Source: Chitinophagaceae bacterium
GTDB lineage: Bacteria > Bacteroidota > Bacteroidia > Chitinophagales > Chitinophagaceae
Length of the DNA stretch: 64,000 bases
Direction of reading: 5' to 3'
Assembly: GCA_965279015.1 (NCBI GenBank)
Contig: OZ257130.1
Location: forward strand, 575,723 to 639,722
Within the stretch, counting starts at the first letter, position 1. Each line of letters starts with the position of its first letter. Under the pieces are notes generated by a model that had not been told where the DNA came from, ran no database searches, and worked only from the letters and a program-made list of their open reading frames with translations. The translations under genes and the position numbers were made by a program. Positions 23,667-31,398 of the stretch are shown piece after piece.

Positions 23667-23951
23667 ATGACCAAGCTCTCCTTACTACGCAAAGCAGGCA
23701 TCGCCGAGGGAATATCCTTTCTTGTATTGCTTCTTATAGCTATGCCGCTAAAATATTTCTTTCAGCAACCCATGGCAGTAAAAATTGTAGGTTGGGCACA
23801 TGGGGTTTTATTTGTATTGTTCCTGCTATTGGCATGGGTGGTGAAAACGGATCGGAACAAATCTTTTAAATGGATGGCGCTGGCTTTTGTAGCCTCCATA
23901 TTACCAGCAGGAACCTTCCTGTTTGACAGGAAATTGAAGAAAGAAAATTAA
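23667..23951 (+). CDS. DUF3817 family small membrane protein
   Basis: AEGISFLVLLLIAMPLKY, GWAHGVLF, ASILPAGTF. Confidence 0.85.
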   Translation: MTKLSLLRKAGIAEGISFLVLLLIAMPLKYFFQQPMAVKIVGWAHGVLFVLFLLLAWVVKTDRNKSFKWMALAFVASILPAGTFLFDRKLKKEN

Positions 23952-24152
23952 GAACAGGCAAACCCCTCCTCCTGTATGGTCTCTAAATGCAAAGAATATC
24001 TGTAAAAAGCCTATAAACCGGGCTTTTTATAAGAATTTTTTTTTAACTTAACATAACATCATACCGCCCCCTCCCCCCATGTAACGCTTTCCGTATCATT
24101 TCAGTTTTAAAAGGCCCCGAGGTAGCAATTAATTTATTGCTAAACTATTGTT

Positions 24153-24854
24153 ATGCTTGAAATTGAAATCTATTTACAGCATAAAAATGAGCTACAAAAG
24201 AAACTGGTAGACCTTCTCGCCCGGCAAATAGATGCAAGTGTAGAAACCGAAGGCCCATATAGAAACGAGATACGAAAAACAGAACGTCTACTCAGAGAAG
24301 CCGATGAAAAAGTTGCTAAGCTCTCAAAAGAAACAATATTTAAAGATGAAATAATTGTAGCACCCGGCGCCATCAAAACAATTAAAATATTTCTTGCTTC
24401 CTCCTCGGAATTAAAAACAGAACGCGATCAATTTGAAATATTCATAAACCGGGAAAATAATGAACTAATCAATAAAAATGTTTTTTTAAGATTGGTGGTA
24501 TGGGAAGATTTTATTGATGCTATATCTGAAACAAGGTTACAAGATGAATACAACAAGTCTATCCAGCAATCGGATATCTTTTTAAGTCTTTTCTATACCA
24601 AAGCCGGGAAATACACCGAAGAAGAGTTTGATGCGGCACTGACCAATTTCAAAAAAGAAGGCAAACCCCTTGTCTATACGTATTTTAAAAATGTTCCGGC
24701 GGGCACGCAGAAATTAAGCGAAGAAACCAGCCTGTTAAATTTTAAAAAAAGACTTTCGCAGATCGGGCATTACCTTACCTCTTTTGAAAATATATATGAC
24801 CTGAAATACCAGTTTAAAATGCAATTGGAAAAAATCATCCCTCAATTCATATAA
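24153..24854 (+). CDS. N-terminal helical domain plus TIR-like (DUF4062-like) domain protein
   Basis: KIFLASSSEL...LVVWED...QDEYNKSIQQSDIFLSLF...KYTEEEF: flavodoxin-like beta/alpha pattern with a conserved Glu. Confidence 0.7.
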   Translation: MLEIEIYLQHKNELQKKLVDLLARQIDASVETEGPYRNEIRKTERLLREADEKVAKLSKETIFKDEIIVAPGAIKTIKIFLASSSELKTERDQFEIFINRENNELINKNVFLRLVVWEDFIDAISETRLQDEYNKSIQQSDIFLSLFYTKAGKYTEEEFDAALTNFKKEGKPLVYTYFKNVPAGTQKLSEETSLLNFKKRLSQIGHYLTSFENIYDLKYQFKMQLEKIIPQFI

Positions 24855-24857
24855 TAC

Positions 24858-25667
24858 ATGACAGAAGAACTCAGAATACAAGAAGCGCATTTAAAAAAGC
24901 TTTATAAAAACCTTGAGGAACTTCTGGAAGGGCAAAGGAATGCAGGTCCTGGGACAGAAGGCGATTATAAAAATCTAATCAATACAAATGGTAATGATAT
25001 TTCCGCTACGAGGAAAAAAATCGAACTCCTGAAAAACCAGGAACAAAACAATAAACCCGAAACACTCTTTATCTATATTATAACCAATACCAATGAGGGA
25101 ATTCGCTCTGCCATTGGTGCAGATTTGTTTGAGGTGTTGAATCCAACTAATCATGATGACGAGGATTGTTCAAAGTGGATCCCATTTACCAGAGACATGA
25201 ATAGCATTTGCGAACTTATTAACGAGTTAAGGAACAGGGGATATGTATTTAAAGAAGAGTATCTGACCGGCAATATAAGCGCGCAAAAGGAAGTGAGCAT
25301 AGAGGACGATTTACAGATCAGTATCGCTGTAATCGATCTGCTGTCTTTAGATAAAGAGAATGAAAAAATCGCGGGCATCTTTAATAACAAACTCGCCTGC
25401 AGTGTAATTACTCCTATTGCTGATTCTTTGCATGAAAAGGTAAAAGAATTTATGATTCAAAAAAGAAAGGCTGTTTTTACGAGGCTGGAATATCGAATAG
25501 CCAATTTGGACATTGATAGTTATAACCCGGAAATCGCAGGAAAATTAACTTTTATTAATATTCTTCACAGAATTTTCAAAACGAAACAACCTGTTATCGG
25601 AATTATTAAACCCGATGGTTCTGATATTCGTGCCCGTTTGAGTACACAAAACAACCCATCCATTTGA
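24858..25667 (+). CDS. Uncharacterised protein: N-terminal helical domain shared with 24153..24854, FxsC-C-like C-terminal domain
   Basis: N-terminal similarity seen directly; KWIPF, IAVIDLLSL and SVITP recall the FxsC C-terminal domain (inference). Confidence 0.6.
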   Translation: MTEELRIQEAHLKKLYKNLEELLEGQRNAGPGTEGDYKNLINTNGNDISATRKKIELLKNQEQNNKPETLFIYIITNTNEGIRSAIGADLFEVLNPTNHDDEDCSKWIPFTRDMNSICELINELRNRGYVFKEEYLTGNISAQKEVSIEDDLQISIAVIDLLSLDKENEKIAGIFNNKLACSVITPIADSLHEKVKEFMIQKRKAVFTRLEYRIANLDIDSYNPEIAGKLTFINILHRIFKTKQPVIGIIKPDGSDIRARLSTQNNPSI

Positions 25668-25679
25668 TTAAACTGCTAT

Positions 25680-28556
25680 ATGAAAATAATTTCTTTTTAT
25701 TCATACAAAGGAGGAGTTGGCCGGAGTCAGCTCTGCTCAAATATTGCCGCTTACCTGTTCTATCATAAAGGGAAAAAAGTGTTGCTATGGGATTGGGATT
25801 TTGAAGCGCCCGGTCAGCATTATTTTTTTGGACTTAAGAATAAGGATATTCAAAAAGCCGGGACACTCGAATTACTCGAAGAATATATGATTACCATGCG
25901 CAAAGGAGGGGAAATAAAACCTTCGGATCTTACTTATGTTACCGCAGAAAAAAATATTACCCCACTCCGATTTCCTGATAGTAGCAATACTGGTAAAACA
26001 GGTTGTATAGATTTACTGGCCGCCGGAGCATACGAAAATGATTTTGGGTACCGGGCAAATAACTTTGATTGGTTCGAGTTCTACAGCATGATGGATGGTG
26101 CCAATTACATAGAACATCTTAAAGAACAATTGGGGACCCTGGGATACGACTATATACTCATTGACAGCCGAACCGGTATCAGCGATTATTCCGGTATCTG
26201 TAATATTCAACTCCCTGCAATTAATGTTCTGGTTGTTGCGCCGACTCTTCAAAATTTTGAGGGCTGCAAATCCATCATAGAAAAAATTCAAAAGGCAGAA
26301 TACCATAAGATAAAAAAAACCAAACCGCGCATTTTGCCAATACTGTCCCGGTTGGACTATAGTAATCCTAATTACAATGAATGGGTGCTTCGATTTTCGG
26401 AATATTTTTCGGCCACTATGATAAACCTGGATGACGAGTTTGATCTTGAGTTCCTGCCGGAGATATTTTCAGATGTCTATTTTAAAGATACTTTTCTTCC
26501 CTATACTCAAGCGATTTCCGCCGGTGAAAATATCCTGTTCAGTTATCAACGAACCTATACCAGCACGGATCACACAAAACCTTTCCGGAATATCGCAGAA
26601 TATATTGAAAGTATAAACGTACAGGGTTATATCAGCTTCTATAAACGACTGGATGAAGATACCTGGGTCAATTACGCAGATATTGCGGAGGAGAAAAGCG
26701 AGCACAGAAAAGCCGCCATTGCATACACACAAATTGGAATCAAACAAAACGATACTGATAGAAAACTAGAATACTTTAATAAAGCCATTTCGATCGATAG
26801 CGGTTATCCCCAACCATATTACTATGGCGGCAATAGCTATTATGTAAAGGGAAACAAGGAAAAGGCAATTGAGTTTCTCCAAAAATATGTAGACATAGTT
26901 CCCGATTATTATCTCCCCTGGTTTAACCTGGGATTGATCTGCTATGAATCAGGATTAAAGGAAAAAGCCATCGAATGCTACAATATAGCGATCGAATTAA
27001 AACCTGATTATCACCTGGCCTGGAATAACCGCGGATTGATCTATTATGAAGACGGACAAAAAGAAAAAGCCATCGAATGCTATAATAAAGCGATCGAATT
27101 TAAACCCGAATTCCCCCAGCCCTGGTACAATCTGGGATTGATCTATAATGAAGAGGGTCCAAAAGACAAAGCCATCGAGTGCTATAATAAAGCGATCGAA
27201 TTTAAACCTGATTATTACCTGGCATTGAATAACCTGGGATTGATTTATAATGATATGGGAGAATATGAAAAAGCCATGACTTATTATAACAAAGCCATCG
27301 AATCTAAACCCGATTATCACCCGGCATTGAATAACCTGGGATTGATTTATGAACGACTAGGACAAAAAGAAAAAGCGATCGAAGCATTCAATAAAGCTAT
27401 CGAGTTAAAACCCGACTATCACCTGGGATGGAATAACCTTGGATTGATTTATGACCAGTTAGATCAAAAGGAAAAAGCCATCGAGTGTTATAAAAAATCA
27501 ATCGAGTTAAAAAACGATTACCCCCTCAGCTGGTATAACCTGGGATTAATGTATGAAAAGACAGAACAAATAGATAAAGCTATAGAATGCTATAGTAAGT
27601 CGACTGAGTTAAACCCCAATTACTCACTCAGCTGGTATGGCCTGGGTTTAATGTATGAAAGGAAAGAAAAAATAGATAAGGCTATTGAATGCTATAGTAA
27701 GGCAACCGAGTTAAAACCCGAATATCCGCTAAGTTGGAATAACCTGGGATTACTCTATGAAAGGACAGAACAAAAAGAGAAAGCTATTGAATGCTATATC
27801 AAGGGGACCGAGTTAAAGCCCGACAATCACCTTCCATGGCACGACCTGGGAAGAATATATAATAGTATGTCTCAAACCGAACAAGCCATCTATTATTACG
27901 ACAAATCCATCGAAATTAAACCTGATTACTATCTTTCATGGAACAATTTGGGGGTGATCTATTATCGGCTGGGACAACAGGAAAAGGCTATTGATTGTTA
28001 CAAAAAAGCGATCGAGTTGAAATCAGATTATTTTAATTCATGGTTTAACCTCGGTTTGATTTATAATGATATGGGAGATACAAAAAAAGCAATCGAAGTC
28101 TATAACAAAGCCAGTGAACTAAATCCAACAGATTATGGTGTGTGGGTGCAACTGGCGGATATTTACAATAATTTGAAACAAACAGAAAAAGCAGAAGAGT
28201 TCTATAAGAAAAGCATCGCTTTAAATCCAACCTCGTCCGAAGTTTATAATACTTACGGATTTATGCTGTTCAAGTTGGGAAAGGCAGATCTAGCAGAAGA
28301 CTATTTTCAAAAAGCGGTGGAGTTGGGATCTAATACACATGGGAGTATGAACCTTGCCAATATCCGTTTTATCAAAGGCAACTGGCAGAAAGCAGTTGAA
28401 CTCTATAAAAAAAGTCTCGATCACTTTAAAGAAAAAGATCAATTCTGGACAGGAATCGATGGCGATTTTCAATACCTGCAACAGTATAATATTTCAAAAC
28501 AGGATTTTGAAAAAATGAAATTCGAAATTTCCCAAACTACTGTTCCGGTAAGTTGA
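25680..28556 (+). CDS. KGGVGR-variant ParA/MinD-type ATPase fused to about 16-17 TPR repeats
   Basis: FYSYKGGVGRS, WDWDFEAPG, DYILIDSRTG; 34-aa repeats W.NLGLIY...G..EKAIECY.KAIELKPDY. Confidence 0.9.
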   Translation: MKIISFYSYKGGVGRSQLCSNIAAYLFYHKGKKVLLWDWDFEAPGQHYFFGLKNKDIQKAGTLELLEEYMITMRKGGEIKPSDLTYVTAEKNITPLRFPDSSNTGKTGCIDLLAAGAYENDFGYRANNFDWFEFYSMMDGANYIEHLKEQLGTLGYDYILIDSRTGISDYSGICNIQLPAINVLVVAPTLQNFEGCKSIIEKIQKAEYHKIKKTKPRILPILSRLDYSNPNYNEWVLRFSEYFSATMINLDDEFDLEFLPEIFSDVYFKDTFLPYTQAISAGENILFSYQRTYTSTDHTKPFRNIAEYIESINVQGYISFYKRLDEDTWVNYADIAEEKSEHRKAAIAYTQIGIKQNDTDRKLEYFNKAISIDSGYPQPYYYGGNSYYVKGNKEKAIEFLQKYVDIVPDYYLPWFNLGLICYESGLKEKAIECYNIAIELKPDYHLAWNNRGLIYYEDGQKEKAIECYNKAIEFKPEFPQPWYNLGLIYNEEGPKDKAIECYNKAIEFKPDYYLALNNLGLIYNDMGEYEKAMTYYNKAIESKPDYHPALNNLGLIYERLGQKEKAIEAFNKAIELKPDYHLGWNNLGLIYDQLDQKEKAIECYKKSIELKNDYPLSWYNLGLMYEKTEQIDKAIECYSKSTELNPNYSLSWYGLGLMYERKEKIDKAIECYSKATELKPEYPLSWNNLGLLYERTEQKEKAIECYIKGTELKPDNHLPWHDLGRIYNSMSQTEQAIYYYDKSIEIKPDYYLSWNNLGVIYYRLGQQEKAIDCYKKAIELKSDYFNSWFNLGLIYNDMGDTKKAIEVYNKASELNPTDYGVWVQLADIYNNLKQTEKAEEFYKKSIALNPTSSEVYNTYGFMLFKLGKADLAEDYFQKAVELGSNTHGSMNLANIRFIKGNWQKAVELYKKSLDHFKEKDQFWTGIDGDFQYLQQYNISKQDFEKMKFEISQTTVPVS
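26800..28430 (+). repeat. Coding 102-bp tandem repeats (TPR array)
   Basis: ga(a/c)aaagccatcga(a/g)tgcta at 26961, 27063 and 27165 (period 102). Confidence 0.9.
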
Positions 28557-28596: not shown

Positions 28597-31152
28597 TTAC
28601 TCGCTTACCACCGCCGGCACACTAATGCTTCCTCCATAAAACAATGCATTCAGGAATAGTTTATTGGTGCCGTACCAGGTTCCGCGGAAATTAGGATTAT
28701 CTGTAAATAAAATTACCCGGCCACTTCCTTCACTTCCCACCAGTATAGACGCTGAATTGCGTACACGTTTCAACGTGGTTGGGTGAATATAGCCGCCAAT
28801 CAGCGGGTCGCTTGTGTATTGTGCTATCGTACTATACGGATTGATACTGGGCTGCAAAAAAGTTAACCCGTTACGATACACAGAAACTTTTCGATCAGTG
28901 AATCCAAATCCAAGTGGATGTGTTGTATCCAAATCAACACGAAATAATGAACCACCCATTGCTCTGGCTCCTTCAATATGAACTGCCATATCATAGTCTT
29001 TGCGTGACGGAACTCCCTTACTGCTGTCGGATGGCAGTAACTTTTCCCTTGTAAATCCATTTCGAATGGCCCAGTCGGTTCCGGATTTAATTGTAATCAA
29101 AGTGTTTCCGTTCTGCACCCAGGCTTTTAATTTATCCGCGTTATTTTTATCTATCAACGCATAATTTCCCGATACCATGATAATCGTATTGTAACGACTG
29201 AGATCGGCACGATTAATATTCAACAGATCCAATTTAGTTATAGGCATCTGTAAGCGTTCATCCAGCAAATGCCAGATCTCTCCTGCTTCCGGAGCCGATA
29301 CGCCAGTTCCAACCATCAGTGCAACATTGGGTTTTTTCAACGTGCGAACATAGCCACTGCCCATATCAATACCACCCGAACTAAAACCCGTACTTAATGA
29401 ATAAATAACAAGACCTGCGCGTTTATTAACTTCGCTCACTAAGCGAAAAAGTGAGTCGGAGGAAATGCGTTGCAGATTTACCGGCAATACAATGGAACCA
29501 TATCCAAAATTCTTTGCGACCCCTTTGATCGTTGCTGAAAAGGGACGGAAAGCCGATTGTACAATAGCGCCCCCTTCCTGCAATTGATGTATCACCTGGT
29601 GAATATTATAATCTGTCGCCTCCATTACATAAGCATAATTGCTCTTTTCGACAGATGTAATCATTCGTGTCGGTAATGCAGTCAGCCTTTTGTCTTTCCC
29701 CAATGCTGTTTTTAATTCAGCATACGGCAAATTATACGCGTGTACAAGGCTCCAGGCAGATGCATCGTAAAATGAACTATCCCGGTAGGTAATTTGTTTT
29801 TCAAATACAGTGCGAACCATAATGTAATTGTCCTGGTCGCAGGGGACATAATAGGTTTTTTTTGATTCAAATTTTTTCCCATCAACAGTTACCGCATTTT
29901 CGTTTTCATATACTTCTATTTCGTGCAATAGGAGCATTGCTACAAAGGCCCTGGTTCTTGTTTCATCATTTACATCGCCAAAAACATATCCTTTAACCGC
30001 CGATTTAGCAGCCTGTTCTTTTGCTACCCGGTAAAATTCTTTCCGCAATTTCAACAGGTTATCTTTTTCCACCAGTGAGGCTCTACATGTAGTTAATGAG
30101 GCGATGAATTGATTACGGATGGTAAAAGCAAAGCTTATTGGAATGGTAGTGGTTTCCTGTAAATGCCCCCTCGAACTGGCTTGCTCGAATAAAAAACCTG
30201 CGCCTCCATAAAAGTTGATATAACTACTGCCATAGCCCGGGTATAATTTATCGTACGCCTCTTTGGTAAAATACATCGAACCAATTTTATCCGCCGCGGC
30301 GGCAAAATATTTTGCATACGTTGGATAAATGGTTTTGTATAAATAATCGGGTACAATTGGATTATTGCTTGCGTCTTCTCCCGGATCAAAATAAAAACTT
30401 GCATTGCTTCCCATTTCATGATGATCTGTCTGTATATAGGGTCGCCATTGATGAAAGAACTTTATCCGGTTCCTTGTTTCCGGGAAAGTTCCCAGGAACC
30501 AATCTCTGTTTAAATCGAACCAATAATGATTGAATCGACCACCCGGCCAGATTTCGGTATGTTCACGATCGAGAGGATCAGCTACTACCGGGGATGCCTT
30601 GTGCATATTTGCCCAATGCGTATGTCTGTCTCTTCCGTCGGGATTAATTACAGGATCCATCAATATCACCATCTCATTCAGCCATTTTATAGTTTCCTCG
30701 CTCTCCGATGCAGTGAGATAATAAGCAGTAAGCAGGGCAGCCTCACTGCTGGAGGGTTCATTACCATGAACATTATAGCCCATATGAATGACTAACGGAA
30801 CGGATTGAGTTGATCCACTTACTTGCCCGGCAAGATGTGCTTTACGAATCTCTTCTAACTTTGAATGATTAGCGGCAGACGAGAAAATAGCCGTAACCTG
30901 TTGCCGGTGCTCATAAGTTTCGCCGATGATTTGTAGGGTAACGCGATCAGATAATCGATCCAATTCTTTAAAATACTCAACCAGTTTATCGTGACGTGTA
31001 TGATGAGTACCAATCTCATACCCCAAAAAAGCGGAGGGAGTTGGGATAGCGGGGTTCATATTTCCCGCGTCCGGATAAAAATAAGCAGGTTGTGCATTTA
31101 CAATTACGCCAAAATAAAGAGCTATTAAAGCTAGAAAAATTCTTTGCAGCAT
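28597..31152 (-). CDS. M14 family zinc carboxypeptidase-like protein
   Basis: VHGNEPS, NPDGRDR, DLNRD, DHHEMG; signal peptide from the reassigned start MLQRIF (31152). Confidence 0.9.
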   Translation of the reverse strand: MLQRIFLALIALYFGVIVNAQPAYFYPDAGNMNPAIPTPSAFLGYEIGTHHTRHDKLVEYFKELDRLSDRVTLQIIGETYEHRQQVTAIFSSAANHSKLEEIRKAHLAGQVSGSTQSVPLVIHMGYNVHGNEPSSSEAALLTAYYLTASESEETIKWLNEMVILMDPVINPDGRDRHTHWANMHKASPVVADPLDREHTEIWPGGRFNHYWFDLNRDWFLGTFPETRNRIKFFHQWRPYIQTDHHEMGSNASFYFDPGEDASNNPIVPDYLYKTIYPTYAKYFAAAADKIGSMYFTKEAYDKLYPGYGSSYINFYGGAGFLFEQASSRGHLQETTTIPISFAFTIRNQFIASLTTCRASLVEKDNLLKLRKEFYRVAKEQAAKSAVKGYVFGDVNDETRTRAFVAMLLLHEIEVYENENAVTVDGKKFESKKTYYVPCDQDNYIMVRTVFEKQITYRDSSFYDASAWSLVHAYNLPYAELKTALGKDKRLTALPTRMITSVEKSNYAYVMEATDYNIHQVIHQLQEGGAIVQSAFRPFSATIKGVAKNFGYGSIVLPVNLQRISSDSLFRLVSEVNKRAGLVIYSLSTGFSSGGIDMGSGYVRTLKKPNVALMVGTGVSAPEAGEIWHLLDERLQMPITKLDLLNINRADLSRYNTIIMVSGNYALIDKNNADKLKAWVQNGNTLITIKSGTDWAIRNGFTREKLLPSDSSKGVPSRKDYDMAVHIEGARAMGGSLFRVDLDTTHPLGFGFTDRKVSVYRNGLTFLQPSINPYSTIAQYTSDPLIGGYIHPTTLKRVRNSASILVGSEGSGRVILFTDNPNFRGTWYGTNKLFLNALFYGGSISVPAVVSE

Positions 31153-31398
31153 AGTGATGGTTTTAATCGGGTTCTCTACTAAAACTACCAAAAAATAATA
31201 TTTAAGGATTGAGCTTTTTTCAAACGCCCTGCCCCCAAATACGCTTCGCATTTCATGCGAGAATTGATTATTATCAACAATTGGCATTCCAACTACCATA
31301 TAAACCCTTACAAAAACAAAAAAACTTACCCTCATATTCAATAGAACCCCCTGTTTTGCAGTTATTTAAAATGTTAGATATCCATTGTTGGAAAAACC

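Follow-up and report, generated by a model that had tools for sequence, protein, structure and literature searches.

A rare two-helix hairpin as a candidate adaptor for immune effectors in a TIR-ParA-like operon

The shared N-terminal domain

The window analysed here, a 64,000-nucleotide stretch of the genome of a Chitinophagaceae bacterium (contig OZ257130.1, positions 575,723 to 639,722), holds three consecutive genes on the + strand. The first two, G1 (24153-24854, 233 aa) and G2 (24858-25667, 269 aa, with 3 nt between the G1 stop and G2), encode proteins that begin alike and end differently; the third, G3 (25680-28556, 958 aa, after a 12-nt gap), encodes a predicted ATPase. This raises the question of what two neighbouring proteins with unrelated C-termini would do with one and the same N-terminus. 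A first-pass annotation, made from the sequence alone, had proposed that the segment is a novel helical domain of about 60 aa, comparable to the effector-associated domains (EADs) by which effectors are coupled to core components of ternary conflict systems. On the evidence presented here, the domain is most likely a "plug", not catalogued so far, by which immune effectors are joined to partner proteins.

The open reading frames and the two peptides quoted in that annotation (residues 2-57 of G1 and 3-58 of G2) were recovered as it gave them, as was the ungapped similarity between them. BLASTP of G1 against G2 yielded a single ungapped high-scoring segment pair (16/38 identical, E=4e-4), and comparison by hhalign of profiles built from seven G1 and seven G2 N-termini extended this to 58 ungapped columns at a probability of 98.9% (E=2.7e-17). 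When a profile made from G1 N-termini only was run against a six-frame translation of the whole 5.53-Mb genome, G2 was found at E=9.7e-6 and the next match at 0.44; by profile search, the genome holds exactly two copies of the domain, in adjacent genes. In 21,000 composition-preserving shuffles the maximum score was 13.8 bits, which six of the seven real G2 N-termini exceeded with 18-47 bits. EAD9, likewise a helical hairpin (about 60 aa) and fused elsewhere to the G1-type TIR-like domain, was tried as a relative together with EAD11, and both were rejected (hhalign probabilities of 0.3% and 0.2%, respectively). Since the profile comparison, the genome-wide search, the shuffles and the failure of EAD9 and EAD11 to align all agree, the two N-termini are homologous, and their similarity is not a matter of coiled-coil bias. 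Profile-profile comparison showed no relation between the two C-terminal domains, which had already been described as unrelated (hhalign probability 0.2%).

The first copy covers residues 1-60 of G1 (24153-24332, + strand; 81-90 bits with the profile, ungapped against the G2 copy) and the second residues 1-61 of G2 (24858-25040, + strand; supported by BLASTP, hhalign, profile matches and a structure model). The domain, of approximately 58 residues, is predicted to form an antiparallel two-helix hairpin, in line with the helical character assigned to it earlier. In the AlphaFold2 model of G2, computed from a 23-sequence alignment (mean pLDDT 84.6), one helix spans residues 3-27, the loop NAGPGT residues 28-33 and a second helix residues 34-63, with block-mean pLDDT values of about 79-95 over residues 1-60. 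Across 56 members of the family, both helices display regular a/d heptad stripes, and the best-conserved segment is the tip loop, N-A-G-[VI]-x-T-x-G-D-Y-x-N-x-I (A29 in 51/56, G35 in 53/56 and I41 in 54/56). The sequence pattern first noticed between G1 and G2 is thus real, but its consensus needed refining, the signature of the wider family being L..LY....NAGhxTxGDYxNxI. Apart from the turn motif, no conserved residues of a catalytic type were found in the 56 hairpins.

Fusion partners and gene contexts of the hairpin

The family is rare. Word-indexed searches with G2, as a single sequence or as an alignment, returned only one or two relatives, and an exhaustive hidden Markov model search was needed for the rest. 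This profile search of 1.84 billion representative proteins gave 57 matches at E<=1e-3 and 53 credible clusters; P0140, P0149, P0153 and P0162 were rejected as repeat-protein artefacts with only multiple sub-threshold partial matches. So few matches in a collection of this size exclude a generic coiled-coil bias. Additional loci were sought by means of a degenerate DNA pattern encoding NAGxxTxGDYxNxI, among whose matches one (L021) proved on inspection to be a phage structural gene and four (L022, L025, L027 and L029) were not recovered by the domain profile; all five were discarded. The finds come mostly from Bacteroidota-type contigs. As for known families, the two hairpin segments of the window had no Pfam match at E<=10, the 56 segments together matched no EAD, Death-like or TRADD-N family in Pfam, and full-length G1 and G2 matched no NCBIfam or PADLOC family that covers the hairpin. 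Six full-length relatives likewise gave nothing meaningful against PADLOC, apart from one marginal match to LmuB (E=0.004). The novelty claimed by the first-pass annotation therefore stands with respect to the models in these three collections, and the comparison it had recommended with EAD and Death-like profiles places the hairpin outside them.

The profile search, also recommended there together with a listing of fused domains, brought to light partners of several kinds. Class A joins the hairpin to a TIR-like domain, as in G1, and class B (approximately 21 representative clusters) joins it to the C-terminal domain of G2. In class C (14 clusters) it is fused to EAD11 and to nothing else; with PF19964 (cut-off 26), the EAD11 fusions score 39-61 bits overall and those of class C 43-61 bits. 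Class D (10 clusters) carries the hairpin at its C-terminus, where AlphaFold2 predicts the same fold, behind an all-helical module approximately 95 residues long. Class E combines the hairpin with core or sensor parts, namely a STAND/NB-ARC NTPase (P0163 in L032), an uncharacterised region X followed by TPRs (P0169 in L033, and also in L030) or TPRs directly. Finally, one Chitinophagales metagenome-assembled genome (MAG; G401) contains four dispersed paralogues, of which two are hairpin-EAD11-FGE-sulfatase proteins, one is a caspase-hairpin-FGE-sulfatase protein and the fourth places the hairpin after an uncharacterised region of 500 aa.

The N-terminal module of class D has the motif MDISLIxTAxxTxLxPYLxKxGEKxAExIGEDLW and five predicted helices, the first of them hydrophobic; examples lie at L033:3591-4049, L023:6874-7362 (- strand) and L030:201-695. 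Searches of Pfam and PADLOC gave no family for it, and the PDB no matching fold. Judged from gene position alone, it may be an effector, possibly a membrane-active one. Two open reading frames 3' of a hairpin-EAD11-FGE-sulfatase gene of the Chitinophagales MAG (L020:2136-2833) look by eye like a XisH/XisI-like pair.

The arrangement seen in the window, a gene for a hairpin-effector protein followed by one for a hairpin-G2 protein and one for a KGGVGR ATPase with a variable tail, is repeated in order in nine loci, the window included. Apart from the window, G1-G2-G3 occurs in a Flavisolibacter MAG (L001/L024), in Pedobacter aquatilis (L002) and on metagenomic contigs (L003/4, L005, L006, L007 and L026), and at every such locus the G1 and G2 proteins both begin with the hairpin. 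It is the tail of G3 that varies: TPRs in the window, L001 and the Chryseolinea locus L023, glycoside hydrolase 25 (GH25) in L002, L005 and L006, and a transmembrane segment with an uncharacterised domain in L026. In the Chryseolinea MAG the place of the TIR-like gene is taken by that of a 163-aa, all-helical class-D protein and both G2 and G3 are kept, an effector swap in which the adaptor is retained. Other loci arrange the domain in different ways. Three consecutive hairpin genes, encoding a class-D protein, a hairpin-EAD11 protein and either hairpin-X-TPR or hairpin-STAND, are found at L030/L031 and L032. At L033:397-6824 a class-D gene and a hairpin-X-TPR gene stand alone between the ResIII helicase (res) and methylase (mod) genes of a type III restriction system, a defence-island insertion inside a restriction-modification operon; this locus has no ParA-like gene, so the hairpin does not depend on a ParA-like protein. 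Overall, two or three copies of the hairpin lie in adjacent genes in 11 of the 13 contexts, the exceptions being L028, which has a transposase next door, and the dispersed paralogues of the single MAG described above.

A further observation concerns the modules with a GH25 tail. A Peptidase_S8 gene and a gene for an uncharacterised protein of approximately 420 aa lie directly 5' of G1-G2-G3 at L002:4403-7987, L006:2425-5989 and L005:3182-5959; a bacterial gasdermin gene is likewise found 5' of the module in L002 and L006 and is absent from the L005 stretch. None of the three proteins carries the hairpin. These neighbours may belong to a second defence system that stands in a fixed combination with the module, or to a larger composite system. 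An integrase gene lies near the module in L002, and McrBC is found at L006.

Proposed coupling of effector and partner

Behind its hairpin, G1 carries a TIR-like/DUF4062-like Rossmannoid domain (residues 75-233; 24375-24854, + strand), a putative effector that matches the PADLOC model PDC-S60 at 1.4e-13 and contains invariant W117-E118 and E157-E158 pairs. This domain has about 790 homologues at roughly 60% identity, hundreds of them about 55-63% identical over about 160 residues; many are named from cyanobacteria, and many are fused to EAD9, EAD11, COR-B or GUN4, other fusion partners being Macro and FGE-sulfatase domains. Such conservation across phyla is unusually high for a defence effector, yet the domain stays below the Pfam cut-offs. 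In G2 the hairpin is followed by a conserved domain (residues 66-269; 25053-25667, + strand) that is predicted by AlphaFold2 and the alignment to be alpha/beta, with five strands and a disordered tail, and in which W107, P109, I117, D160 and F207 are invariant. Foldseek related it to generic Rossmannoid folds only, with no TIR structure in the top 50, and the idea that it is a degenerate copy of the TIR-like domain of G1 was rejected at the sequence level by the hhalign comparison given above. G2 is the constant partner, its gene lying directly upstream of that for the ATPase. G3 (25680-28556, + strand) consists of a ParA/MinD-like ATPase (residues 1 to about 330) and approximately 16 TPRs; it scores 124.9 bits with NCBIfam NF047398 (cut-off 90) and matches Pfam TPR_1 in 16 stretches. 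The Walker A motif in its first 17 residues (25680-25730) is KGGVGRS, in which Arg stands where the canonical KGGxGK[ST] has the P-loop Lys; KGGVGRS or KGGVGRT is present in all G3 orthologues seen.

We consider it fairly probable that the hairpin is a previously uncatalogued adaptor of the EAD kind and that pairing between its two copies couples the TIR-like effector to a chassis made of G2 and G3. The hairpins of G1 and G2 would pair, probably as a four-helix bundle, and thereby tether a putative NAD+-degrading effector to the constant G2, which would act together with the ParA-like ATPase. The TPR array of G3 may sense an invader-derived signal and switch the ATPase, upon which G1:G2 units would be rearranged or clustered and the TIR-like domain activated, with abortive infection or cell suicide as the expected outcome. 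The effector would be exchangeable, since its coupling to G2 would be non-covalent. Elsewhere, the same hairpin may wire STAND NTPase and TPR-only chassis to a caspase, to the all-helical module or to EAD11 networks. The comparison of hairpins within and between loci fits such a pairing, as G1 and G2 hairpins of one locus (cognate) resemble each other more closely by BLOSUM score than those of different loci (61.1 vs 45.4, exact permutation p=0.002, eight loci). A more far-reaching proposal, which is put forward tentatively, is that the hairpin is a portable module for specific heterodimerisation, a plug and socket by which a small and so far unrecognised group of modular immune systems is defined. 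The group would include minimal two-gene pairs of a sensor (hairpin-X-TPR) and a class-D effector, and a split form of FxsC in which a non-covalent joint of 58 residues takes the place of a peptide bond. If this were true, no natural adaptor of the EAD type would be smaller, and the exchange of effectors from one immune chassis to another could be tested directly on this model.

Several observations weigh against this coupling. When the cognate and non-cognate hairpins of the same eight loci are compared by identity instead, the difference is marginal (p=0.057), and G1 hairpins are more similar to one another (36% identity) than to their cognate G2 hairpins (27%). Because G1-type hairpins resemble each other more than they do their cognate partner, the pair appears from these comparisons to be heterotypic and old and not a recent homotypic duplicate. 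The best-conserved part of the domain is the tip loop and not the helical faces, which could point to a shared third partner or ligand or simply to a structural turn. The TIR assignment of G1 is weak, since neither Pfam TIR_2 (5e-4) nor DUF4062 (3e-3) reaches its cut-off, and the C-terminal domain of G2 matched no family in Pfam, NCBIfam or PADLOC from which a function could be assigned. The hairpin profile has no match in G3, so that the NTPase, unlike that of the classic EAD layout, is without the domain. In addition, several of the hairpin contexts are short metagenomic contigs. The layout envisaged by the first-pass annotation is accordingly borne out for the effector copy, on G1, and has to be amended for the other, which sits on G2 and not on the core NTPase: in the window, the coupling would be one of effector to G2.

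Four other explanations were weighed, and self-oligomerisation, a ligand of the loop and docking on the ATPase each explain less of the data than an adaptor does. TIR NADases generally need to oligomerise, and the heptad pattern of a coiled coil, together with the separation of the hairpins into a G1-type and a G2-type orthologous group, would suit a module that self-associates independently in each protein, for example to multimerise the TIR-like domain, without coupling G1 to G2. This is unlikely, however, as it leaves unexplained why copies nearly always lie in adjacent genes, why 14 clusters consist of a hairpin and EAD11 only and why the hairpin is retained when the effector is swapped, and it does not predict that cognate copies should be more alike than non-cognate ones. 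More doubtful still is the possibility that the loop NAG..T.GDY.N.I binds a common third factor, such as a host or phage molecule, a nucleotide-derived signal or the membrane. In its favour, the loop is best conserved across all architectures and the systems have no protein partner in common except the hairpin itself; nevertheless, a 58-residue hairpin of two helices offers no obvious pocket, the Asn, Gly, Thr and Asp residues of the loop suit helix-capping and turn roles, and several copies per operon would not be required.

ParA partners commonly use short N-terminal helices, and in nine loci both hairpin genes lie immediately 5' of the gene for the ParA/MinD-like ATPase, which would be expected if the hairpin were a ParA-interaction or ATPase-stimulating element comparable to the N-termini of MinE, ParB or ParG, by which G1 and G2 dock on G3. 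The existence of hairpin loci without ParA (L033, L030 and L032), along with the dispersed caspase and FGE-sulfatase proteins of G401, contradicts this model and makes it very improbable. The chance that the similarity reflects nothing but coiled-coil composition, without a real domain behind it, is negligible. The region is indeed rich in Lys, Glu and Leu, and individual members have scattered weak matches to coiled-coil Pfam models, but the shuffles stayed below the 18-47 bits of the real sequences, the loop motif is specific and not of a coiled-coil type, matches in the protein collection were few, and the profiles of G1 and G2 align with each other while the helical adaptors EAD9 and EAD11 do not align with them. 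Generic coiled-coil bias, one of the two outcomes that would have overturned the first-pass annotation, is thereby refuted.

Relation to known systems and setting of the operon

Small adaptor domains that wire interchangeable effectors to sensor NTPases, in the manner of animal Death-fold domains, are known almost entirely from genomics. EADs have been defined as small, non-enzymatic and mostly helical domains with one copy on a core component and others on effectors, at either terminus (PMC7159879). Most of these properties, set out by Kaur, Burroughs, Iyer and Aravind, are found in the hairpin as judged from its sequences, the relatedness of adjacent copies being partly supported. It is small, non-enzymatic and all-helical, occurs at the N- or C-terminus and has copies in adjacent genes; one copy is carried by a sensor or NTPase (STAND, TPR) or by a constant component, and others by effectors of the TIR-like and caspase kinds. 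The effector domain of G1 is found on EAD9 and EAD11 elsewhere, and the hairpin itself is fused to EAD11. However, it matches no Pfam model of an EAD or Death-like domain, is far shorter than the six-helix Death fold, has a conserved tip loop of its own and is very rare, and in the window the partner copy is not on the core NTPase. The reading as an EAD-type domain thus fits the comparative evidence, whereas membership of a catalogued EAD or Death-like family does not. The hairpin most likely represents a new family of adaptors, rare and of a functional kind already known, within a recently described type of system. Short two-helix units that join separate proteins are also known as class-2 docking domains of polyketide synthases and ROP-like four-helix bundles; the hairpin profile matched the CurG/CurH docking-domain fusion 4myy only weakly and non-significantly (E=0.097), and as no significant match in sequence or structure was found, the likeness is an analogy of mechanism.

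On the basis of its genes, the operon is best described as a putative TIR-ParA type conflict system and not, as the label "ternary" had implied, as a vWA-MoxR system. In the main text of their preprint of October 2026, Li, Burroughs and Aravind describe a functional model for TIR-ParA systems in which a sensor tail detects the invader, a ParA-like protein acts as the switch and the TIR domain depletes NAD+, as well as a receptor-like subtype with GH25 and rare N-terminal EAD5 or EAD6 fusions on the TIR component; that main text does not mention the hairpin (bioRxiv 10.64898/2026.10.19.760177). The loci studied here share with these systems and with FxsC-FxsT a TIR-type gene upstream of a KGGVGR ParA-like ATPase gene, variable tails (TPR, and GH25 in sister loci) and a strictly conserved gene order. 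In FxsC, however, TIR and FxsC-C are on one polypeptide, whereas here they would correspond to two genes, each with a hairpin, which may stand in for the covalent link. None of the NCBIfam FxsC models matches G1, and the C-terminal domain of G2 is not detectably FxsC-C; the FxsC-C model TIGR04276 found nothing in this genome at E<=10 and one of 23 G2 relatives at E=0.02, a weak match. Should the C-terminal domain of G2 nonetheless be a remote homologue of FxsC-C, the hairpins would rejoin the two halves of an FxsC that is split between genes at this locus.

The family would also fill a gap in the picture of TIR-ParA systems, as it offers a way in which a TIR-like effector with a gene of its own could be attached. 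With 58 residues and two helices it is an unusually small case of the EAD kind, and nature has provided experiments with it: an effector swapped on a constant G2-G3 chassis, bridge proteins with two adaptors and a two-gene version without ParA. Because the case is small and comes with such natural experiments, the adaptor principle can be tested by simple pull-downs and chimeras. The alpha/beta domain of G2 and the helical domain of class D are uncharacterised candidates for study in their own right.

In the window, the 5' boundary of the operon is marked by a terminator-like hairpin and T-run at 24001-24040 (+ strand; 12-bp stem and T-tract), 3' of a DUF3817 gene that ends at 23951. The G+C content at 24001-26000 is 0.362, the lowest in the 64 kb (elsewhere about 0.40). 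The hairpin domain is absent from every sampled genome of the host's own family, and when 400 genomes from its phylum were searched, only weak matches of about 23 bits, treated as noise, appeared outside the genome itself. The low G+C content and the absence of the domain from the sampled same-family genomes suggest that the operon was acquired horizontally, as a cassette that came to lie between genes of a housekeeping type. Downstream of it, a 914-aa open reading frame on the opposite strand (28597-31341) was judged by eye to encode a putative M14-like carboxypeptidase.

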